A stretch of 61,355 nucleotides of DNA, the filler included, from Sphacelaria rigidula (taxonomy: Eukaryota): the NCBI GenBank assembly GCA_964200075.2. It is 8 parts of 8 records of this genome, joined end to end, with 100 filler letters (N's around TTAATTAATTAA, not from the genome) between each part and the next. Parts side by side here need not be neighbours in the genome. Positions count along the whole stretch, not along the records: positions 46,094 to 53,674 come from CAXNAA020014229.1; 7 more parts are not named here. The stretch is one strand, 5' to 3'. Within the stretch, counting starts at the first letter, position 1. Each line of letters opens with the position of its first letter. The notes beneath the pieces are model-generated. The model ran no database searches and was not told the origin of the DNA. It was given only the letters and a program-made list of their open reading frames with translations. Positions 7,584 through 53,774 of the stretch are shown one piece after another. Position numbers and translations under genes: made by a program.

Positions 7584-7683
7584 NNNNNNNNNNNNNNNNN
7601 NNNNNNNNNNNNNNNNNNNNNNNNNNNTTAATTAATTAANNNNNNNNNNNNNNNNNNNNNNNNNNNNNNNNNNNNNNNNNNNN
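7584..7683. other. Artificial contig linker N44-TTAATTAATTAA-N44
   Basis: 100 bp with stops in all six frames. An identical linker occurs seven times. Confidence 0.98.
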
Positions 7684-8615: not shown

Positions 8616-11600
8616 TTGGCGCACCGCGAGGTACCTTACGCCTCCGTTGATGCTGTGTGGTCTGCTTTCGTGCACCAAGAGGGTAATCTAACTCCCGCCA
8701 TACGTGGCAAACCTTCTACGCTTTTGCGTTCACAGCCCACGGTTGTATCCTCCGCTGATGCCCAAGGGTCTCGCGGCAGAAGTTCGAGTTCACTTCGCAC
8801 TTCATGGGCTCCCGACTAGGTCGCCGGTTCAGTTATGCATGTTCAGAGTAACACAGATGAATTTAGTGCAAGTTTCGATGGTTGGCCGTTCTCCGAAGAA
8901 ACTTGGGATGATGTTTATTTGACTTCAACAACGGCATTCATTACAGATGATCCCCATTTGTGGAACCCACTTCTTTTGTCTCCTGCTAGACGCAACGCTT
9001 TCAGCAGTCATGCCAACAGTTGCATTAACTCCAGTGTTCAAGGCCACAGTATGCGCGACTGCGACAGCCCATGCATCAATGCCTTTGATCTCATGAACCC
9101 TGAACTGCAGGACATTCAACCCGCGTGGCGCCGATGGCAAAAACGCATGGGCGACTATCACCCACCGAGTTGAAATTATCGCAATAATTCGAATCAACGA
9201 GGCAGCAATAGCTTTAATCCCGGTCGCCGAAAAAATAACAATAATGCAAGCCCCTGCCAGGAAAAACATAATTCTCGCGACAGCAAACGACCCGCTGATA
9301 GACACCAGCGGATGGGACCGACACAAACCTCGAACCCCAACACAAGAAACCCTGGTACCTCCACTACGGGTCCTAAAGTCTTCCGCGCCGCCGACAGATT
9401 CAGCGAAGGTTTTTCCAACACAGCCGGCGAAGCCCGCGCCTAAGATTGCTCACCCGACTCCCCCGGTATTATCGAGGAGCGCAAAAGACGGCCGTTCAAA
9501 TCGACCTCCGTCTCCACCCTCCACACACCTTTCAACACAGCCCGAAAAGCCCGCGCCTAAGCTTGTTCGCACGGATCCCCCGGCACTATGCAGGAGCGCG
9601 ACTGACGGCCATTCATATCGACCCCCGTCTTCATCCCTCCACGCACCGCATAAAAGCTGTGTCACCCCGCAACTCAGACCTACACCCGGCCCTGAACTTG
9701 GTCCTTCAGTACACTTTCTACGATAGCCCGCCCCCCCCAAACCAGCCCAAAATGTCACGAAAAAATGGTCATACAGCGCCTGATGTTTGGGTTCAGGCTG
9801 TGTCAATCGCCTCATGTGGGCGACATGCATTGGCGAGAATGAACCCAACCGCGGGAATTCCCAGCTGCTTGTTGTGCTCGGCATTTTCCATTTCGATTTA
9901 TTTGTAGGTTTTGCCTCTCCAAACCAGGCACGTTTTGGGGGGGGGGCAGTCGTAGAACGTGTCTCAGTGCCGAGAATAAATCTGAGATGTGGGAGCACCG
10001 ACCGCCAGTCCATGAGGCTTAGGCTTCCCTCAGCGACCGCACGCACAGGTAGTAGCACGCCTTTTTCAGCTGACCCAAGTGTTGCTGATTTGAACTTGAT
10101 CACATCGGATAATGTAGTACCCAAACGCTACCACGCCTACGAAATACGTATCCTTGTTGGACAGCGGCAGCCCGCAAACATTTATTTGAGAATCAACATA
10201 GGAATACATAAACAGGCTGGCGCTGCTACTGCAGCTTGCGAAACCACCACCCAACCTCGAGTATGGGGCGGTTTCGGTGATTCTACCGCACCCACGAACA
10301 TCCGTACGTCTCTGTGTGAATTTTTTTCAGAACACCACTCGTTCTGCCAGCCTGGCCGTCTGGGCATACCTTGTCCCCGACAGCACAATACATCACACCA
10401 TATGTTTGGGCAGATATACTTATATGCGGTTTAATAAACGAACCTACCGCACGCTTCCACCGCTATCGCCACACTCCACGCCTCGTGGAGAATTCAACCT
10501 TGAGCACTTTGGTACGCTCCACGGTGCCCTTGCCTACCAAAATATTACTCAAGTAACCGGAGCTGCTTACCACCAACGATACAGAGGTAGTGTTGGTAAT
10601 ACCCTCTTCGACGATCCTCAACTTTTGGAAGTTGTACTAGTTCGCCGAAATGGTATGTCAGCACTTACGGGTCATTATCTTGCCGAACTGTTACCCCGTA
10701 TTGGCGCACCAGCCGACACAGAACATTTTTTCTCCGCGGGACAACAACTCCTCCTCTTTACGGGTCATGCTAACTTGGAGCCCGGCGATATTATAGGAAC
10801 CGCTGCTGCTCCCGTGGTGCACATCCCACTCGAGACGTGCGGAACAGAGCCTGCCGAGCCCAACACAACATCTCCGACGGAGTCAGTCCATTGTGTCGAT
10901 AACCCTTTTTTCGACCTCGTCTCTGCGGCTCCACCCCAGGTCCACGCCGTGTATCCTGCCCAGTCAAATTCCGATCCTCCTGCTAAAGTGCTTCTACGCT
11001 CATCACCAGATTTTCGGAAAACAATATGCAAATGTGGAACCAACTGCCGCCACACATGCGCGATGTCAATTTTGACCTTCATGGGCTCGGTTGGGAACCG
11101 GCAGTCGCCCGAAAATTCAGTGATGTCCTGTTACAGTAACAAGACCAATTTTCCCGATCCAAGACGGATCTTGAGCATTGCAAAGCGCTGTCTTTTGAGG
11201 TTACCCTCCAACCCGGCGTCTCGCCGATATCTTCTCGACCATACCGGACAAACCCGACCCTTACCAAGAAATTTAATGCCATCTTGGCTGCATACTTGGG
11301 AGCGGGATCAATACGACATCTCTCCTCTCCTTGGGCCTCGCCACTTGTGGTCGTTCCCAAAAAGGATGGAAACATACGCTTAACCGTGAACTACCAACGA
11401 TTGAACCGCGTCACTGTGGTTGGTCAACTTACAATCCCGGTCATTGATGAAGTCTTCGACTCCTTAGGCTAAGGAAACATATTCAGCACCTTCGACTTCG
11501 CTCCTGGATGTTTTCAGAATGCTATCCTCCCTGACAAAGTCCAACTGAGGGCTTTTTGTACCTCGTCCGGGCTCTACGAGTGGCTTCGAATGCCACAAGG

Positions 11601-11795
11601 TGCTGCCACTGCTCCGGGATGCTTTCAACGCTTAATGAAACATGTCACCGAGAGCCTCGAGCACATCATCATGTACCTAGATGACGCTATCGCTTTCGAT
11701 GCCTCACCTATTACACGCATCCGCTCTCTACGAAAATTTCTCTCTCGCATACGCACACACGACTTGAAATTGTCTCCATCCTAAGCTCGCCTTGG
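8616..11795 (+). pseudogene. Degenerate Ty3/Gypsy gag-pol (zinc knuckle, RT), 3'-truncated
   Basis: Degenerate CCHC knuckle CINSSVQGHSMRDC (~9020-9062). RT motifs SPWASPLVVVPKKDGNIRLTVNYQRLN, GLYEWLRMPQG and YLDD (~11674). Stops and frameshifts; ends abruptly after KLSPS*ARLG. Confidence 0.88.
9710..9963. mobile_element. MITE inserted in the Gypsy ORF
   Basis: TIRs (T/G)ACAC(T/G)TTCTACGA..GCCCCCCCC. TCAG direct repeat at 9706-9709 and 9964-9967. A second copy lies in opposite orientation at ~53362-53600. Confidence 0.8.
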
Positions 11796-12310
11796 TGTGG
11801 AGGTATAAGCAACTACCGCAAGCAGTAATGCCGTATACGCCGAACACAAGCAAGCCACACCCTTGTGGGGCGTGGGCAAGCGGTCCTGTTTTCGACTTGC
11901 TAACTCAAATTGTTGATTCACTCTCTCAATACAATAGCCCAGCTGTCAAAAGGGGAAACAGCCCCAAAGCCAGCAAACAAGTAACAATGTGAATGAGGGT
12001 AGACATACAGAAGTGCTAAGACTCACGTCAGAGCTGTGGACTCGCGACACTAAAGACAGGAGATCGGTGGGTAGATGATGAGTAAAAGCTCTTCTTTATC
12101 CAAGAAGGCCTGATGACTGTAGTCGTGGTTTTCGAGTGCGACAGGTGGGTAGAACAGCTGCCCATACATCCGTCTGCCCCACCTACAATCTCGTCATAAT
12201 ACAAAATCACCGTGACGCGCCGTACCTTTAGGTTATGAAGGCTGTAGTAGCAGCAGGTACACGCGGCTAATCGGGTACAATCCATCTACCTTCAACCCGC
12301 TGCGTCAACA
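11796..12310. mobile_element. Candidate LTR-like segment interrupting the Gypsy RT
   Basis: Begins TGTGGA exactly where RT homology stops and ends TCAACA. No TSD, PPT or second copy is seen. Confidence 0.3.
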
Positions 12311-15265: not shown

Positions 15266-15365
15266 NNNNNNNNNNNNNNNNNNNNNNNNNNNNNNNNNNN
15301 NNNNNNNNNTTAATTAATTAANNNNNNNNNNNNNNNNNNNNNNNNNNNNNNNNNNNNNNNNNNNN
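15266..15365. other. Artificial contig linker
   Basis: N44-TTAATTAATTAA-N44. Confidence 0.98.
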
Positions 15366-21476: not shown

Positions 21477-21897
21477 CATTGCTCCTGTCATAAACGCGCC
21501 GTCATAGCTGAATCAACGGAGCACTCTGCTGTATCAGAGAGGCGAGAGCTTATAACCCTCTGGGGGTATCATACTATTGTGTACTAATCCATACAGCGTG
21601 AAAAAACGTTAGCCTGTTGTTGTGACAGTAATTGTCAACAGGTGAGCTAGACATAGTCCTGCATGCCAGGCTCCACCATCTGTAGATGGATAAGCAATAT
21701 GTACTGCTACAGATCCATCAAATGCTGTCCATGTGGACAATATACGTGCGAAGAACTGGGATGTTCACTGTCAGCTCTCATGAGCATTGTCCTGTTCTCA
21801 ACGCGCCGTCATAGCTTGATCGGCAGAGCACTCTGCTGTGTCAGAGAGGCGAGAGCTCATAACCCTCTGGGGGAATCGTACTATGAATATACAGCGA
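21477..21897 (+). repeat. Local direct duplication (~110 bp, offset ~308 bp)
   Basis: ACGCGCCGTCATAGCT...GAGCACTCTGCTGT..CAGAGAGGCGAGAGCT.ATAACCCTCTGGGGG at ~21494 and ~21801. Confidence 0.8.
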
Positions 21898-22947: not shown

Positions 22948-23047
22948 NNNNNNNNNNNNNNNNNNNNNNNNNNNNNNNNNNNNNNNNNNNNTTAATTAAT
23001 TAANNNNNNNNNNNNNNNNNNNNNNNNNNNNNNNNNNNNNNNNNNNN
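22948..23047. other. Artificial contig linker
   Basis: N44-TTAATTAATTAA-N44. Confidence 0.98.
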
Positions 23048-30629: not shown

Positions 30630-30729
30630 NNNNNNNNNNNNNNNNNNNNNNNNNNNNNNNNNNNNNNNNNNNNTTAATTAATTAANNNNNNNNNNNNNNN
30701 NNNNNNNNNNNNNNNNNNNNNNNNNNNNN
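30630..30729. other. Artificial contig linker
   Basis: N44-TTAATTAATTAA-N44. Confidence 0.98.
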
Positions 30730-38311: not shown

Positions 38312-38411
38312 NNNNNNNNNNNNNNNNNNNNNNNNNNNNNNNNNNNNNNNNNNNNTTAATTAATTAANNNNNNNNNNNNNNNNNNNNNNNNNNNNNNNNN
38401 NNNNNNNNNNN
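38312..38411. other. Artificial contig linker
   Basis: N44-TTAATTAATTAA-N44. Confidence 0.98.
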
Positions 38412-38520
38412 AAATCGGGCCCAAAAAAGGGGCTCGTAGGGGGTTGGGGTTGGTCATTTCCAATCCAGAGACCCCCCTGCTCAATCGTATCTTCTATTCT
38501 CAATCTCACGAAAACATTGT
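38412..38520 (+). repeat. Dispersed repeat shared with 223-277 and 46106-46148
   Basis: AAATCGGG.CCA.AAA..GGG.TCGTAG.GGGTTGGGGTT.GTCATTTCCAATCC (also at 223) and CTCAATCGTATC.TCTA.TCTCAATCTCACGAAAACA (also at ~46107). Confidence 0.75.
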
Positions 38521-38529
38521 TTGCAGTTT

Positions 38530-45818: not shown

Positions 45819-45993
45819 TTAACCATCAGACTGCAAGCGTCGCCTCGAAACGGTCTCACAGGCTGACAGTCCGGAGACATCCGGGGGCTTCCAGGGGGGG
45901 GGGGGGGGGGGGGGGAGACCTTTTGTTGTTTGCCCTGGGGGTTTCATGTGTCGCCCCCCCTCCCTTCTGACGGGGCGCCCTCCGTGGGGGGCG

Positions 45994-46093
45994 NNNNNNN
46001 NNNNNNNNNNNNNNNNNNNNNNNNNNNNNNNNNNNNNTTAATTAATTAANNNNNNNNNNNNNNNNNNNNNNNNNNNNNNNNNNNNNNNNNNNN
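45994..46093. other. Artificial contig linker
   Basis: N44-TTAATTAATTAA-N44. Confidence 0.98.
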
Positions 46094-46144
46094 GATCAAA
46101 GCCACCCTCAATCGTATCATCTACTCTCAATCTCACGAAAACAC

Positions 46145-46440
46145 TGTTGGGTAAGTTCGCAGGAGCCCCGAAACTTCCATATCTGTACAGCCGGATCTGG
46201 GACCCCAAGGTAACAGGGATCTTCCCAGCGAACTGCTGGCTACCCCTGGGGATCACTCTTGACCAAGACTCTCAGACTTCGTCATCGGGCTAACTCGCTC
46301 GCGCTCGTCGAGCTTTCCCGAGTGTTCCACTTCGCCTCAACCCCGCGACTTACGGTCAATCCTTGACTACATAACCCGAGGGAAATCATCGGCCACCTTC
46401 AACGGTTTCTACCGTCACCGGGAGTCTCCCGACTTCCACA
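46145..46440 (+). mobile_element. Putative 5' LTR of the Gypsy element
   Basis: Starts TGTTGG where homology to the host repeat (cf. 38510) ends. Ends TTCCACA one base before the TGG of the PBS. No second LTR on the contig to confirm. Confidence 0.6.
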
Positions 46441-46441
46441 T

Positions 46442-46526
46442 TGGCGACACCAGTGAGATTCGAACTCACGCGTGCGAAGCACATTGACTTAGCAAGTCAA
46501 CACCTTAACCACTCGGTCATGGTGCC
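46442..46526 (-). tRNA. tRNA-Ser(GCU), full length with encoded CCA, at the PBS position
   Basis: Minus strand: GGCACCA TG ACCGAGTGGTTAAGGT G TTGAC TTGCTAA GTCAA TGTGCTTCGCACGC GTGAG TTCGAAT CTCAC TGGTGTC G CCA. All stems pair; anticodon GCT, long variable arm, discriminator G. Confidence 0.93.
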
Positions 46527-47598
46527 AAGAATTGTAACGAGTGAAGACCTCCAATCCAACAAAGTACCGGATGCTTTTAGCCGCCTCGTTGTGGCACGCA
46601 CAGCCTGCATCTGGTCAGCGGTCAACAAAACAGCTAGGGTACAAGTAGCGAACCCGTCGAATAGACACGTCCAACTCCCAAGAAAATTATTTTTGGGACA
46701 CATCACACAAGTCGGAAAAAATGACCCGACGGGGAACGCCGGTGACCTTTCACAAGTTGAAACAAATTACCCGACGGTCAGTGCAATTTCACAAGCTGAA
46801 CGGCAAAATACTGACGCCCGACAAGAACTTACAATAGAGCTCCAAAATACATTTAAAGATAGCACGTTTTCTGAAAATCAGAAGAGTCAAGTGCTCGACC
46901 TATGTATCAAATACAGGTCCGTCTTCTCACTGTCACAACGAGAATTAGGTTGTACAATTGGGGAAGCAACTTTTCCCCTTCTCCCGGGTACCAAGCCCGT
47001 CGATCGGGCCCCGTACAGAGCCAACCCCAGAATTCAAGAAGTCGTCGACAACTGTGTACAGGAGATGGAAAAAGACGGCATAATTGAACAGAGGACCAGC
47101 CCATGGGGCTCGGCAGTGACGACCGTAGCTAAACATGATGGTACTGCCAGATTTTGTGTTGACTACAGATCCCCGCTCAATAAAAGTCTTGTGCGCAAGT
47201 CATGGCCAATGCCTAATTTGGAAAGTCATGTAGATACGGTGGCAGGCGCCATATTTATCTCTGTCTTTGATGTACAGAGCGCGTTCCATCAGATCCCAAT
47301 AGCGGAGGAGGAGAAAGAAAAAACGGCCTTTGTTACACAGAAAGGTAAGTGGGTTTTCAACAGGCTACCGTTCGGCCTGGCATCTTCCCCGTTCATTTTC
47401 TCGCGAATAATGGCTCTTACTTTCTCACACTTTGGACCCAGGAGCGGTCTGTTGGAGTACATGGATGATTTGATCGCCTGCTCCTCCGCATGGGAAAGTC
47501 ACCTCACTCTACTGGAAGACATGTTCAAAGCACTGAAAAAAGTAGGTCGTACCCTAAAGCCCTCTAAAGCACACTTTAGTCCCAAGGAGGTCAAGTAC
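46527..47598 (+). CDS. Ty3/Gypsy pol fragment: PR-RT linker and RT core, 3'-truncated (within ORF 46441-47658)
   Basis: PYRANP, SPWGSAV, DGTARFCVDYR, FDVQSAFHQI, KTAFVT, RLPFGL, YMDD, LKPSKAHF..KEVKY. Confidence 0.93.
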
Positions 47599-49869
47599 AG
47601 AAAATCTTTAGATTATCATCAGCAGCACAGGTCAACACGCTACACCGCCTCGGAGTAGTGACAATGCCCCCCACGAAATGATGTCATGCTGCAAGGCGGC
47701 GCCGATCATTTATCTAACATCAAATTGTTCGCCTCGGCCCACCCCCACAGAAAAGGAGATTCACCGGCTCTGAGTATCGAGATACATTATGAAAGGGTCA
47801 CAGACGTGGGTCAGATCTGTGAGGTCGCATGCACCGCCTCGTGTACACAGTCAAACGTTGACTATTCCGTTGTTCCATGTTTGTATGTTGTATTTTCGAA
47901 CCCGGTTTACCCTGTGCGCATTCTGCATGCAGTCATGCAGGACGAAGTTTAGTGAGCGCACCGTATGCACAAGTTTGACTCTTGTCAACACAGACGCGCC
48001 TCGCATGGGGTCAGATGGACGATGCTGCATCAAGGTTTCATAACAGTCGTTTCATCACTGCACGGATGCCTTTTGTTCAAAAGCACGGGGGTATGTGTAC
48101 AAGGTATTTCCGACAATCTCCGACCGGTGCGTGTTTTGCGATTAGAGGAAGACAGCTCATTGTGCAGTCTACGGCGTCGGATTCAGGCGTTCTTGCTTCA
48201 ATCCGAAATCCGCTCGGTGTTCATCTCCGTTTCCGAGCCGCAAATTGAAGATCCGGCAACAGTCGTTGCCGCCCCCGCGTGATGCCGTTCAGGCTGGTGT
48301 GTCGGCAAGATGTTCACCCGTCCGTGTTCGTTGGATCTTCGTGAGGTCCGGCACACAAGAGACCTGTATGTATCGTTGGGTCTTCCAGGTCTTCGGGCCA
48401 ACCAACAGGGGGGCTACACTCTTCTGGTCGTTGAGTTTCGGCCTGTTTTGGCGGGGTGTAGTTTTACCGAATATGGTTATGGTTGTGACTGCTCGGCGTA
48501 ACTTGCGCTGAGACGGCGGTACGGTCACCACTTCACAAAAAAGGGTCACCACTTGACAGAAAAGGGTAGATATATATATATATACATTTTTGCAGAGGGC
48601 AGGGTATACCCTGCTGTTTTGCTTACATAAAAAGGTACTCTCACAGGCTCTCATTTTCGGCGCGGTAGTTCAGCCCAGTAACACTTGTGAAAGTGAAAAA
48701 AAAATGGACTGATGTGCTGCCCAGGGATCTTGGGCGTGGGGCTGAAGTGCTGGAACATGTTCTCGAGGTGTTGAGCCAGCGTGCAGCGCCGCGCCCCAAA
48801 GCAAAAAATGCGCTACCCTTTTTTACTCCAAAAGCATAATGGTGTACCCTTTTTTTGTATATTGCCCAAAATGACCCGATCTTCATCCACATGCTTCTTC
48901 TCCCAGTAACCGTGATCAGCTCAGGAATCCAACGGGAAAATTAGAAAATAATACCGGAAACGGTTACTATAAGGTCAAGTCATGCCCCAAACCATGGTAT
49001 TTCAGTAATGTGACGTGTTCGCGTCGTACGATTTCCACTGATAATACACACCGAAGATCCAGCGGGCATCCTAACGGCCTCTTGTATCTGTCGTTGAAAA
49101 CCTCGCATCAGCCTTACACTTGACAGTATGGTTGATACTGGTGTTCCAGACGGAGAAATGTTCGGTTGAAACCTATCATGAAGCTTGTCCGCTTTGAATC
49201 GGCTTCCGGGGATCGCCACTCCTGGATCCCCAGAAGCCGTTGCAGCATACTTCAAAGAACAGTCACAGAACATGTGGTCGTCCCGGGTTTGCCCGAGGAA
49301 CATACGTACGAACGTGCCCTAAAACTCGGTAAACTGATGCAAGGGGGTCGTTCTAACGCCACACGAACCCGAAAATGTTCTATTCTGAAACCAAGTAGAG
49401 ACTCTTCACTTTCCGAGCGCACTTTATCGCACAAGGGTGCAAATTCTCAGGCCGATTCTTGGAGTTGGGTTCTAAAAATGCACACAATCACTACGGGCCA
49501 TTACGGACTTCTTGAAGGCTGGTCAAGGGCTGGTGTTTATTTTTTCGCTAGCTATCGGGTCTTAGATGGGCATGTTATCCTCCCAAATCCTCCGAACCCC
49601 TGGGACCCACGATAGCTGGCGATGAAAAAAGCACCGTCCTTCGAAAGTTTCGTATTGCTCGTACGCAGTAAATGTACGCATTTTCTCAAAATCTAGCTCC
49701 AAGGATCGGCGTGAGCATTTGCGCATGAGGGAACTTTGGCGCAGAAGCCTGTACGAGGCTTTAAACGCTCTCTGTAGCAGTAGCTCGCCACTGAAGCCTC
49801 CGATGATCCCGAGTGGGATATCGACGTGTCGCTGGAAGCACGCGACAGTGATGCAGCCAAGAAACATTA

Positions 49870-50011
49870 CATACCCTGGACAATGGAATACACTGTCAAA
49901 AGATGTATTGCGTACAGTATAGAATCTATTGTCCATTGCTGCAATAGACAATAGATTTCATACTGTACGCAGTACATTTTTTTTACTATGTATTCTTCTG
50001 TCCAGGGTATG
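49870..50011. mobile_element. Hairpin MITE with 8-bp TSD (P- or hAT-like)
   Basis: Near-complete palindrome CATACCCTGGACA...TGTCCAGGGTATG. Flanks AAACATTA / AAACAATA. Confidence 0.75.
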
Positions 50012-51145
50012 AAACAATACACCACCATTAAATGAAAAAAATGTTAAAGTTACAGCAAACTAAAAAAATTTAATATCGAGCAAGCGCTAAACTCTCAATC
50101 TGGGGAAAGGTTTTCATCAAAACACACAGGAAGAAGATCGGCCACACGGATTGACCATCCACTCTGAAGAGACGCAGGCGCTGCGAAACGGACAGGGCAC
50201 ACGGAAACACTCACACGCGCGCATACACGCCCTACGGAGCTCGAAGGTTCACCATGGCACAAGCTGGCGGCGAGAATTTTCAGTCAACCGCAAAGTAAAT
50301 CACGTCACACCACACCACGCTACACTTCTCCACCGCGATGTCAAGGCAACCTTTTGCCCGATTGCGCAAGTATGAGACAGGTTTGCAACACCATCGTTCA
50401 CGCCAAGGACTGGAAGAAATGGTGGACCACCAAGGGAGCTGTAAAAAAAATGGAAGAAAACAACTGAGGAATGACACCCGAAATGTACAAGGCGCCAAAT
50501 AAGTCAAATACGGAACACACCGTCCCTGCACACAAAGAGCGGTAATAACACGAAAAGAAGCGATAACAATGGCGCGTTTCATCGTCAAACGAAACATCGA
50601 GATACTAACAAGAATCGGGAGCGGGGGGGGGGGGGAGGTGAGACAAAAAATATAAGGCAGCGAACGCACGACAAAATAATGTCGCGGCTACGCACCCACC
50701 ATCATGCGCTATTCGAACATTTAAACTAAGGGAAAATCTATCGTCCACCACGTCACACGCCAGGTTCGCACACCTCTCGATGAGACAAGCATCCCCCCCC
50801 CCCAACCCCTCGCTCCCCATTGCTACCGCCATCAACCGGCACCTAAATCTCGGGAGAATCAACCTTTTAACACAATGCACCGCCGATGTATGCACAGGCG
50901 TCTGGTACAGTACAAGCGCCCTCCTTGACCCTCGTCTCCCCTCGAACGTATATAAATCGCATCGGTAAATCTCTCCCTTGCCCCGCCCCGGTTATGCCTT
51001 CTGTGGAACCCAGGCAAAGCGAAGATGTACAGTGAAAAAATACCATGGCACTCTTTCCCGGCTTCCCTCGCGCCCCTGCAACGAAAGGTGAGCTATAGCC
51101 ATGTCTTTCGCGCCATTTCTGTAGATGACGTCCCCCCTTTTTGTA

Positions 51146-51448
51146 TCAAAGAAGGGGCCGCGTAAGGCCCGCCGAATCCACCCCGTGTCGCCGAGTGTCC
51201 ATGACGGCGTACGTGGCGCACAGACACGTGACGATGATCACGATTCCGAGACCGTTGCTCAGCCTGCAGCCGGCATACAGGTCCCAGTAGTGCGCGGCGG
51301 GGTTATAGTCGGGTTCTGTGAGCGTGTAGTCCACGCCGCAACCCAGAATGCTGTTCTTGTCCATGATTCCCGAGATACATGTGAACGCCGCTGCAAAGTA
51401 GGTGAAGATGCCGATGAACACATGTCGCGGCATGTACTGCGCCTTTAC
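51146..51448 (-). CDS. Cytochrome b561 family protein, last exon
   Basis: CAG acceptor at 51449-51451, phase 0. VKAQYMPRHVFIGIFTY... to stop, with heme His in PRHVFIG. Confidence 0.88.
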   Translation of the reverse strand, partial: VKAQYMPRHVFIGIFTYFAAAFTCISGIMDKNSILGCGVDYTLTEPDYNPAAHYWDLYAGCRLSNGLGIVIIVTCLCATYAVMDTRRHGVDSAGLTRPLL

Positions 51449-52430
51449 CTGTGTTGTGTGTCGGAGCGGGGAGATCGAGTTGCGCGGGTGCCAAAAATAG
51501 TGGCAGCAGCGGCGGAATCGGTGGTGGGAATGAAGGGACAAGGCCATGTGTCCCAGCAGTACTGCGACGAATGTAGTAAGTAGGGCACAAATAACGACAG
51601 GGAACTTCGCCACCTATATACCACATGGGTTAGCCCATTTCCTACAATTCCCATTGGGCATCCTGCGCGGTCGAAGAGTCGACCCCTTCATTTTCAAGTC
51701 GGAATCCTCGATTAACGCTCGACAGACGGACATTTTTGGGTGGGTTCGGAAGATTTTCATCTGGTGGAGAGGCAACGACGTCACGAAAATGGCCGTTGCT
51801 AGGCGTACGCCTCACGTCGCAGTCATTAGTGCAGGAACCACGAAAAAACTGTAGCGGTCATCGCACCGACAGTACAGGTGCTAGGGCATTGCATGAAGAT
51901 TACTCGTGTTGCAGAGTCCGAGCACGTGACGACCGAAAGCACATTTTCACCGCGGAAACACACGCAAACCTGTGCATTGCATAAACGCCACGTTCCCTTA
52001 GACGATTCCGTGGGCGATGAAATCAACTCGCGAGAACACGGCCAGACACAGCCGAGCCTGATTCATGAAACCAAAGTTCAAGAACGAAAACCTGAACGAA
52101 CCCGCTTGACAATTGGGCCTGGTTCAAGATGTTGTGATCTCATCGGCCGATAACAAAACCTCGCGCACGAACTCATGTTGGCGTTCACGCGGCCAATTGG
52201 CGGCCATGAACGCATGGAACGCTTATTCTTGACATCCTCGGAAGGCTGTCAGGCGGCCATCTCGCGACTGAGCGCCTATCGGGTTGGTCTTCCGACAATT
52301 AGTCCACACACCCGACTCGTGCAAAATGAGAACATGACCATAGCTTCATCCGTCTGTTCAAGTGGAAACACCGTGTACACTCAGACAAGACCGGTTGTGC
52401 TTCCGCAGAGGACGACAAAAAAAAACTCAC

Positions 52431-52562
52431 CGATTGAGAGGTGCACCCCAAGAAGAAGCTGAAGAACCCCCCGACGTAGTTGGCGTAAAACAGAGTCACC
52501 ACCACGATACCGGCCCAGCTGTGCATTGTGTACAGGTTCGCATACAATTCTTCGTTGTGGTA
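52431..52562 (-). CDS. Cytochrome b561 family protein, internal exon
   Basis: CAG acceptor and GTGAGT donor, 132 nt, phase 0-0. YHNEELYANLYTMHSWAGIVVVTLF matches the b561 NLYSLHSW motif. Confidence 0.9.
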
Positions 52563-53120
52563 CTGTCATGGAACAAGACACATACACGGATGTGTACGAA
52601 AACGAACAACAGCGGCGAGCGAAGAGACAGGAGAGGTAGAATATCGCTTGAAAAAAAAATGTGATATCAAATATTCCGCTGCGATAAGTTTGCGACATCT
52701 CAATGGATATCGGATTGCCTGCGTTTTACCCATGAGCCTCTGCAAAACTCTTATTATTTCGAAGATATACCTGTAGAATTATCTTCATGCCCGTCATCCA
52801 AGATCGCTTGAGAGCACGCACGACATGAGGCGTTTATTTTTTCAGGTGACAGCAACACGAACCGCTCTGGATCTCGTGTTGATGTTCTCGACGGGAACTG
52901 ACATATGAACGTTAGGGTGTCGGAGCGTTTGGTCTACTTGACTCCCCCTCTCAACATCAAGTGAAACACATGAACATGGAAACACACTGTGACCCGACGT
53001 TGTGAAACCGAACGTAAACGTACGTCGGAGTCAAGTGTACACAACTGTGCCGGAAATGACACCACGACACCTTGCTGGTCGAGCAAGGACAACGAAAGCA
53101 AAAACAGCAAAAACAGTTAC

Positions 53121-53239
53121 CTGGAACACGGCCCACAGCCCGAGAGAAATAAGCACAGCTGCCACGAACATGAAGAAATTGTGGAGTCTCTTCCTGGTCT
53201 CCCTGCTGAGGAACAGCAGCGTTCGATACGACAGAATAC
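53121..53239 (-). CDS. Cytochrome b561 family protein, internal exon (5' exons lie beyond the contig end)
   Basis: CAG acceptor and GTAACT donor. ILSYRTLLFLSRETRKRLHNFFMFVAAVLISLGLWAVFQ (YR..K..H motif) splices in frame to the next exon. Confidence 0.87.
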
Positions 53240-53361
53240 CTGCCCATCATATAACAGGGCCGGACGGGGCATTAAACAGAAAAAAAAAACTCCAAATGTT
53301 CGGACTGAGACGAAAACAAACATGAAGTACCGTTTGGGGCCGAATGCTTTTTTAGAGTGAC

Positions 53362-53610
53362 GGACACTTTCTACGATAGTACCGCCCCCAAACGTGCATG
53401 GTTTAGAGAGGCAAAATCTTCACGTAGAGCGAAATGGACGGAGCCGAGCACAACGAGCAGCTGGGGATTCCCACGCCTGGGTTCGTTCTAGCCAATACCG
53501 CCAACATGAGGCGCTTCATACAGCCTAAACCTAAACATGAAGCGCTGTATAGCCATTTTTTTCGTGACACTTGTGGCCTTTTTTTTTTGGTGGGGGGGGG
53601 GGGGGGGGTA
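53362..53610. mobile_element. Intronic copy of the 9710-9963 MITE family
   Basis: GACACTTTCTACGA...GCCGAGCACAACGAGCAGCTGGGGATTCCC...CCATTTTTTTCGTGACA matches the reverse complement of 9750-9963. Confidence 0.8.
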
Positions 53611-53674
53611 GTTGGGAGCGTTTCATTTTTTTTTTCCTCTCCCCCCCACATAATCTATTTTTATTGCTTTTTGT

Positions 53675-53774
53675 NNNNNNNNNNNNNNNNNNNNNNNNNN
53701 NNNNNNNNNNNNNNNNNNTTAATTAATTAANNNNNNNNNNNNNNNNNNNNNNNNNNNNNNNNNNNNNNNNNNNN
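53675..53774. other. Artificial contig linker
   Basis: N44-TTAATTAATTAA-N44. Confidence 0.98.

Follow-up and report, generated by a model that had tools for sequence, protein, structure and literature searches.

How does a complete transfer RNA, ending in CCA, come to stand between a repeat resembling a long terminal repeat (LTR) and the pol gene of a Ty3/Gypsy retrotransposon, at the very place where the primer-binding site (PBS) is expected? The question is raised by a locus of Sphacelaria rigidula (assembly GCA_964200075.2), studied in a window of 61,355 nucleotides (nt), which is the whole stretch of DNA that was analysed. The window is an artificial joining of eight pieces, ~7.58 kb each, via N44-TTAATTAATTAA-N44 linkers (7584-7683, 15266-15365, 22948-23047, 30630-30729, 38312-38411, 45994-46093, and 53675-53774), and the DNA flanking a linker on its two sides is not contiguous in the genome. 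The genomic context of the tRNA is piece 7 alone (46094-53674); the tRNA lies near the start of this piece, and nothing left of 46094 counts. The locus is probably a defective Ty3/Gypsy fragment that arose from a reverse-transcription error, in which the whole primer tRNA was copied and synthesis then jumped into pol. The features on which this answer depends are the following, where HSP stands for high-scoring segment pair and RT for reverse transcriptase:

46149..46440, plus strand: LTR-like high-copy repeat ending ...TTCCACA, taken as the U5 end of a 5' LTR from depth, its CA end, and its position
46441, plus strand: one T that separates the repeat from the tRNA complement (direct reading)
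46442..46526, minus strand: complete tRNA-Ser(GCU), 85 nt including CCA, occupying the PBS position on the plus strand (ARAGORN, Rfam, and fold)
46513..46527, plus strand: junction zone, a candidate microhomology (tblastn HSP starts, alignments, and a sibling contig aligning from 46515)
46527..47598, plus strand: Ty3/Gypsy pol fragment, consisting of a protease-RT linker domain and then most of RT, with no stop and an abrupt end

In all 61,355 nt, ARAGORN finds a single tRNA, a minus-strand tRNA-Ser at 46442-46526 whose anticodon is GCT, and the Rfam model RF00005 matches 46445-46526 on the same strand with 58.4 bits (gathering score 29), model positions 1-71 being fully covered. Since the Rfam match begins at 46445 and the ARAGORN match at 46442, the three extra bases 46442-46444 (TGG on the plus strand) are an encoded CCA. 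In the Rfam alignment all stems are paired, no non-standard pair is marked, and the long variable arm of class II is present. The A and B box consensus allows recognition of an A-box region, TGACCGAGTGGT, and a B-box-like sequence, AGTTCGAATCT. Position 32 of the tRNA is U (46495 is A on the plus strand), and an unrelated genomic tRNA-Ser implies C32, by back-translation from an antisense open reading frame (ORF; P0148). On the plus strand, the left junction reads GACTTCCACA (also ...GGGAGTCTCCCGACTTCCACA), T, and then TGGCGACACCAGTGAGAT..., and at the right junction the tRNA complement ends in ...GGTCATGGTGCC, followed directly by AAGAATTGTAACG. The preliminary description of this DNA had reported a complete CCA-ended tRNA-Ser(GCU) with intact stems and no oligo-T terminator immediately downstream; these statements stand, and direct reading of both junctions bears out its account of them base by base.

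The next issue is whether the tRNA was moved as a gene or copied from an RNA. An ordinary nuclear tRNA gene does not encode CCA, has its own 5' leader, and carries an oligo-T terminator of RNA polymerase III (Pol III) soon after the discriminator base. The copy resembles such a gene in its cloverleaf and valid anticodon (Ser(GCT) by ARAGORN, with the Rfam score given above) and departs from it in three respects, as CCA is encoded, no T4 is met along the tRNA strand until 301 nt downstream, and pol begins right after G1. The processed 5' G, the added CCA, and the absence of a leader and of any T-run for 301 nt thus indicate that the sequence was copied from RNA and not moved as a gene. Both ends of the tRNA are exact mature ends, and both adjoin retroelement-type sequence. 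Counting positions on the sequence places the canonical 18-nt PBS part at 46442-46459, A58 at 46460, and G1 at 46526. As expected of a PBS, TGGCGACACCAGTGAGAT complements tRNA positions 59-76, one T past ...TTCCACA, the end of the putative LTR. Read in the element's sense, the tRNA complement starts with TGG beside the repeat, passes A58, and reaches G1. A CCA complement one base past a repeat ending in CA is the standard PBS position and points to a primer, and the antisense orientation of the tRNA relative to pol fits the copying of a primer still attached to minus-strand DNA.

The repeat on the left was assessed by its abundance in public sequencing data. Five runs, from two studies, share 25-32% of sampled words of 46145-47600, part of the runs sharing words with the stretch being labelled algae metagenome, and contigs from four runs were placed on 46094-49000 at a likeness of at least 85%. 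One contig of run X4 (1,796 nt) is identical to the stretch over 48845-49000, so the source species is probably present in at least one run; the pol part is matched in the four runs only by contigs with ~4-15% differences. In all four runs, the bins covering 46191-46384 are 20-45 times as deep as the pol bins, an abundance over the pol part like that of LTRs with solo copies. From bin 46288-46384 to bin 46482-46578, which covers the 5' half of the tRNA, the depth falls 20-45-fold and reaches the pol level, again in four of four runs; the abundant repeat therefore does not include the tRNA. On its copy number, ...ACA end, and position, 46149-46440 is taken to be the LTR of this pol family. No second copy of it is found in 46094-53674 or in the whole 61,355-nt window. 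Still further left lies one more repeat:

46094..46148, no strand assigned: flank outside the element, the end of a hyper-abundant repeat, ...CACTGTT (depth and diverging contigs)

The bin 46094-46190 has a summed contig depth ~60-90 times that of the next bin in four of four runs, and hundreds of contigs, after matching as far as 46148, go over into sequence that is unrelated. The terminal stretch occurs again at 38480-38521 (42 nt, 93% alike), and there too the likeness ends past TGTT. Because the contigs diverge after 46148 and the copy at 38480-38521 ends in the same way, TGTT at 46145-46148 belongs to the neighbour repeat. The left edge of the LTR-like repeat may thus lie at 46149, or the repeat may be truncated there. 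The preliminary description had placed the start of an LTR at 46145, which these data make doubtful; its claim of an LTR stands insofar as a high-copy repeat ending in CA is present, a candidate LTR of this family. The hyper-abundant repeat itself ends in ...CTCAATCTCACGAAAACAYTGTT, with a consensus before the end that is common to the copies and a sequence past the end that varies. Two contig joints, 46148>48570 and 46148>48313, were dismissed as noise, their sides being 18-21 nt in AT-rich sequence.

The depth profile also bears on the possibility that the tRNA works. It might be proposed that the family carries its own primer tRNA gene, the second and bolder suggestion of the preliminary description, or that the tRNA with CCA and the antisense LTR form a Pol III-transcribed precursor of a short interspersed element (SINE) or a TRIMp3-like element. 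The intact cloverleaf and the A-box region and B-box-like sequence are in line with this. The order of tRNA, CCA, and U5 complement is also that of the layout reportedly assumed in the strong-stop-DNA model of SINE origin. Among LTR retrotransposons, Helenus is an example with a tRNA-like Pol III promoter (Kojima, 2024; PMC10886601), although its tRNA-like part lies within both LTRs and not at the PBS. However, the depth over the 5' half of the tRNA equals that of pol, the adjacent repeat being 20-45 times deeper, and this is not what a SINE or a Helenus-type TRIMp3 would give, with a tRNA-like head in a multi-copy repeat unit. There is also no T4 terminator for 301 nt, a sibling contig lacks the tRNA (see below), and the intactness of the tRNA is equally explained by youth, as the pol frame is also unbroken. 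Searches for further copies point in the same direction. No tRNA is present in the 60 scanned of 81 distant Gypsy-bearing loci. A 38-residue peptide over the repeat end and the tRNA copy gave four matches at E <= 0.001 among 1.84 billion representatives, none of them with RT (one Myb protein, one leucine-rich repeat kinase, one repeat protein, and an ORF of 97 residues in antisense on a tRNA-Ser gene). The tRNA-coded segment (residues 12-62) gave no match among 5.8 billion clustered proteins at lengths of 234-748. Neither search thus found a protein joining the tRNA-coded peptide to pol, which is weak evidence, as a library of representatives at 50% identity would hide such a copy. Taken with the depth, the sibling contig, and the distant T4, these results leave a working tRNA very unlikely, and the suggestion of a family with its own primer tRNA gene is not upheld. 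A narrower form of the idea, namely that the minus strand from 46526 to ~46138 could act as a ready-made Pol III unit (tRNA-Ser(GCU), CCA, ~300 nt of antisense LTR, and the first T4), is judged a shade less likely still.

If the tRNA was a primer, the sequence joined to its 5' end should come from the same kind of element. An open frame at 46375-47658 crosses both the end of the repeat and the tRNA complement, goes on beyond them, and contains RVT_1 (E = 3.7e-22; ORF residues 269-408, corresponding to 47179-47598), an RT of Gypsy type. The direction of the pol fragment is that expected of an element whose PBS the tRNA complement would be. No stop interrupts the 362 codons of the frame 46513-47598, which means that the copy is young. 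Its relatives are Ty3/Gypsy polyproteins, 49-66% identical (the best 66%), and the nearest named relatives of the retroelement protein, at 54-70% identity, are from the brown alga Ectocarpus, which, like the algae metagenome labels mentioned above, fits a host among the brown algae or their relatives. Full-length relatives (1,423-1,577 residues) contain RT, RNase H, and the zinc-binding and core parts of integrase, with a weak chromodomain in one. When 120 relatives were compared with the piece by tblastn, the main HSPs started at 46513 in 33 of the 120 and ended at 47598 in 74. The pol homology begins at 46513-46527, which matches residues 171-338 of the relatives, ~190 residues before RT. 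With the homology starting within the polyprotein, the leader and the N-terminal part are missing from this copy. The starting point lies past the region with protease-like motifs in the family consensus, and in the relatives themselves the protease is seen by Pfam only weakly (Asp_protease_2, E = 0.019, one of five relatives, at a loose threshold). A loss of the protease specifically from this copy is therefore suggested at most by weak evidence, so that of the pol without leader, gag, and protease reported earlier, the missing leader and N-terminal part are confirmed and the protease loss is weakly supported. Similarity upstream of 46513, seen in 16 of the 120 HSPs and reaching across the tRNA as far as the repeat (query residues 4-46), was rejected as chance; scored alone it gives 20.2 bits, compared with 17.2-27.4 in 30 shuffles.

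The first part of the pol fragment belongs to a conserved domain of ~190 residues in the protease-RT interval of this Gypsy clade (46513-46800 here; residues 320-500 of the relative P0125), with the consensus ALIEPRIVT..VARTVCxWS..VQIANPSxRxVxLxRxTxLGxIxPV. It has no Pfam family, and a PDB sequence search with 46513-46713 gave no match. Judged by its sequence, the pattern is reminiscent of a dUTPase-like beta barrel. Within this domain lies a feature peculiar to this copy:

46706..46800, plus strand: in-frame local duplication in the pol linker, specific to this copy (direct repeats D3 and D8)

The duplication is ~39-45 nt long, with the units CACAAGTYGRAAMAAATKACCCGACGG and TTTCACAAGYTGAA; contigs in three of the four runs skip 46699-46734, and the relatives show a gap of 13-14 residues there.

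How the tRNA was joined to pol can be considered from the junction codons. In the stretch these read S-V-M-V-P-R-I and align with the family motif A-[LV]-[IV]-E-P-R-I, and all ten long relatives inspected have [AVI][LIV][LIV][EQ]P[RLKF]I where the pol alignment starts. The CCA codon for P at the junction consists of the complements of tRNA G2 and G1 plus the first pol base, and the tRNA-derived 3' end, GTCATGGTGCC, resembles the conserved V-I-E-P codons (GTN ATH GAR CC). In one sibling contig the alignment starts at 46515, which is 12 nt within the tRNA, and the 305 letters before that point do not resemble the stretch; to judge by these letters, the contig is a normal copy without the tRNA.

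The same contigs must be considered for the question of whether the junctions are real. A chimeric path through an assembly graph or library, leading from the PBS of an element into a host tRNA-Ser gene and out again into a pol copy, would give a similar order of parts. Neither junction is bridged by the 32 contig pieces listed of ~24,000, and only 25-32% of the words sampled from 46145-47600 occur in runs of the species itself, both of which would suit such an artefact. A host gene, however, would supply no CCA, its overlap with a normal PBS would be at most ~16-18 nt, presumably too short for usual assembly word sizes, and the tRNA-pol join shares only few identical bases. An assembly chimera would also not respect the exact mature ends of a tRNA. 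An artefact is thus highly unlikely, the most so among the explanations considered here.

Past the pol fragment, the element is not continued:

47599..48900, no strand assigned: unrelated repeats past the pol breakpoint (tblastn, depth, and no match to 46149-46440)

With the relatives as queries, tblastn gives no significant match beyond 47628 in the piece, and neither RNase H nor integrase is found anywhere in 46094-53674, so that the order protease, RT, RNase H, and integrase is not complete in this copy. The depth past 47598 is high and uneven and rises again from 48131. Sibling contigs continue past 47598 with sequence unlike the stretch (two records), and in one contig family 47590 is connected with 48127 on the opposite strand, with 47646-47699 skipped. 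From the joint at 47590, the breakpoint at 47598 possibly shares a few bases (9 nt) of overlap with the next repeat.

This second break raises the possibility of chance juxtaposition, in which a retro-copied mature tRNA, or a fragment of one, came to lie between a pol fragment and a repeat unrelated to it through an independent insertion, such as one made in the repair of a break, and no priming took place. The region is a mosaic of nested, truncated repeats, the assignment of 46149-46440 as an LTR is indirect, and the pol fragment is broken at 47598 as well, possibly with the overlap just described; all of this would suit such an origin. It requires three coincidences, however: a CCA one base from a CA end, an antisense orientation like that of a primer, and a 5' G at the start of pol homology. 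Moreover, no A-tail or other mark of retroposition of the type caused by long interspersed elements is found past the CCA. Chance juxtaposition is on balance unlikely, though it is somewhat less so than a working tRNA.

Read-through of the primer therefore remains to be described as a sequence of events. Plus-strand strong-stop synthesis normally ends 18 nt into the tRNA, one base before the 1-methyladenosine at position 58 (m1A58). It is proposed that tRNA-Ser(GCU) primed minus-strand synthesis at a normal PBS, one base past the 5' LTR, and that plus-strand strong-stop synthesis then failed to stop before A58 and went on as far as the 5' G, so that all of the tRNA was copied. The 3' end left by this synthesis, ...GGTCATGGTGCC, would have been unable to make the normal second jump. 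Instead, this tRNA-derived end would have annealed by short homology to minus-strand DNA in pol, at the A-V/L-I-E-P codons, and would have been extended there. Such a misplaced jump would delete the leader and the N-terminal part of the polyprotein (230-340 residues), including the region of the protease in the relatives. Integration could then have followed one of two routes, as a provirus carrying the deletion, with the cut at 47598 coming later, or as a cDNA fragment that was captured. What we infer here comprises the read-through, a hypomodified primer, how far the microhomology extends, and the route of integration, as well as the upstream repeat being the element's LTR. The first proposal of the preliminary description, in which RT read through a hypomodified primer and switched template into pol, is accordingly the best supported in view of the mature ends, the antisense orientation, the spacing, and the seamless pol join, with the LTR identity and the read-through as its inferential parts. 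The process corresponds to a known failure mode of plus-strand strong-stop synthesis, and the join to pol is like the microsimilarity switches of LTR-retrocopy chimeras; what is distinct here is that the captured RNA is the primer itself, that it was copied whole, and that the product is fixed in the genome. The tRNA copy is most likely a passive fossil without function, and the locus looks like a one-off accident of reverse transcription and not a new kind of element.

Several points weigh against this account. The left edge of the repeat lacks a clean TG, TGTT at 46145-46148 being the neighbour's, and the repeat is a putative LTR of this family. The microhomology is drawn from a protein motif and the alignment start of one contig. 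Position 58 of the tRNA is a clean A and position 26 a G, so that no scar of misincorporation is visible from this copy by itself. No contig bridges 46441/46442 or 46526/46527 among the 32 pieces listed; 24,097 contig pieces fall outside that list, and the count of junctions says nothing either way. Scans for sibling DNA found relatives of no more than 40% identity, and otherwise chance matches. In viral contigs the protein scan found one locus (40% identity) and the scan for the LTR-PBS pattern none, and in metagenome contigs the protein scan found 80 loci, all at most 40% identical; the 12-mer PBS occurs in none of these 81 loci. In prokaryote genome contigs the pattern scan gave three matches in bacterial metagenome-assembled genomes, which were rejected as chance, since two align over only 23 nt and the third has no reportable alignment. 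Finally, a second LTR, a polypurine tract, and a target-site duplication were not found in the piece; the 3' end of the element is absent, and with the element cut at 47598, its integration as a provirus cannot be demonstrated.

The remaining content of the window is of less concern to the argument. A cytochrome b561 gene lies in the same piece on the minus strand, in two exons (51146-51613 and 52299-52565) with an intron of ~700 nt between them, which match Pfam PF03188 with E = 3.3e-10 and 0.0064; the two exons show that 46094-53674 is nuclear eukaryotic DNA. In the other pieces, an RT fragment with stops at 11077-11796 (plus strand) represents a different Gypsy-like family, 25-30% identical to relatives, and a 44-residue scrap of the linker domain at 21618-21749 (minus strand) is 64% identical to P0128; neither an LTR nor a PBS was found in those pieces. 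Runs of G, 13-18 nt long, occur at 45900-45917, 50618-50643, and 53592-53617, within pieces and at piece ends, and could be either true simple repeats or the result of poly-G errors in sequencing that passed into the assembly.

The locus can be compared with known associations of tRNAs and retroelements. Ty3 and the Dictyostelium elements DGLT-A/TRE integrate upstream or downstream of genuine tRNA genes, which keep leader, trailer, and terminator and have no CCA. An LTR retroelement beside a tRNA is common to both situations, but here the flanks begin at the mature tRNA ends and one flank is internal pol sequence. Closer in form is the strong-stop-DNA model, reportedly put forward by Ohshima, Okada, and co-workers in 1993, in which SINEs are founded by a molecule that carries the U5/R complement behind a primer tRNA and its CCA. 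The minus strand from 46526 down to 46149 has the same layout; the founders in that model are multi-copy and transcribed by Pol III, whereas the tRNA part here is not multi-copy. Helenus, Cassandra, and Ajax, grouped as TRIMp3, are LTR retrotransposons that are non-autonomous and whose Pol III promoters resemble those of tRNA or 5S genes (Kojima, 2024; PMC10886601); they share with this locus a sequence of tRNA type inside an LTR retroelement. The tRNA-like part of Helenus, which lies in both LTRs, is thought to be SINE-derived, is multi-copy, and mostly could not form a functional tRNA, whereas here a perfect CCA-ended tRNA stands antisense between LTR and pol, with no evidence of more than one copy.

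The capture of cellular RNAs offers another comparison. In LTR-mediated retroposition chimeras (Tan et al., 2016; PMC5131818), a cellular RNA likewise replaces part of the internal ORF and short shared sequences are found at the fusions. By the model given there, RNA captured in minus-strand synthesis comes out in sense; the captures are sense mRNAs with two internal switch points, and the paper does not mention tRNA. In the present case the primer itself was apparently captured, in antisense, with the natural join of primer and U5 on one side, so that a single switch is enough. The failure itself has been described for the RTs of HIV-1 and M-MLV, in vitro and in cell culture, with tRNA-Lys3 or tRNA-Pro as primer (Fukuda et al., 2021; PMC8599865). 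In that work, RT without the m1A58 stop copies further tRNA sequence, which is unable to pair with the minus strand, the second jump fails, and the read-through product is said to be incapable of finishing synthesis and of integrating. The copying of the primer tRNA beyond the 18-nt PBS part is the same here, but the product is in the genome, contains a whole 85-nt tRNA-Ser(GCU), and was apparently rescued by a jump into pol. No description of a genomic copy of a complete primer tRNA at a PBS was found in the literature covered, outside which most older subscription papers fall.

As a single and probably inert copy, the locus leaves the understanding of how LTR elements work unchanged. Its full tRNA copy nevertheless names the primer of the family outright, tRNA-Ser(GCU), whereas a normal PBS of 12-18 nt gives a partial match only. 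Once the tRNA genes of the host are available, the copy can be read base by base against them for misincorporation induced by modifications or its absence, which bears on hypomodification of the primer. The locus also has its tRNA, CCA, and U5 in the arrangement that an origin of SINEs by the strong-stop model is said to require, and if its Pol III unit were real, transcribed, and copied again, it would be a natural founder molecule for tRNA-derived SINEs or for a lineage carrying its own primer. If the proposed read-through is true, the locus would be a natural record of a retrotransposon RT traversing an entire mature tRNA in vivo. It would also mean that a dead-end product can still reach the genome, though laboratory work calls such products abortive (PMC8599865).

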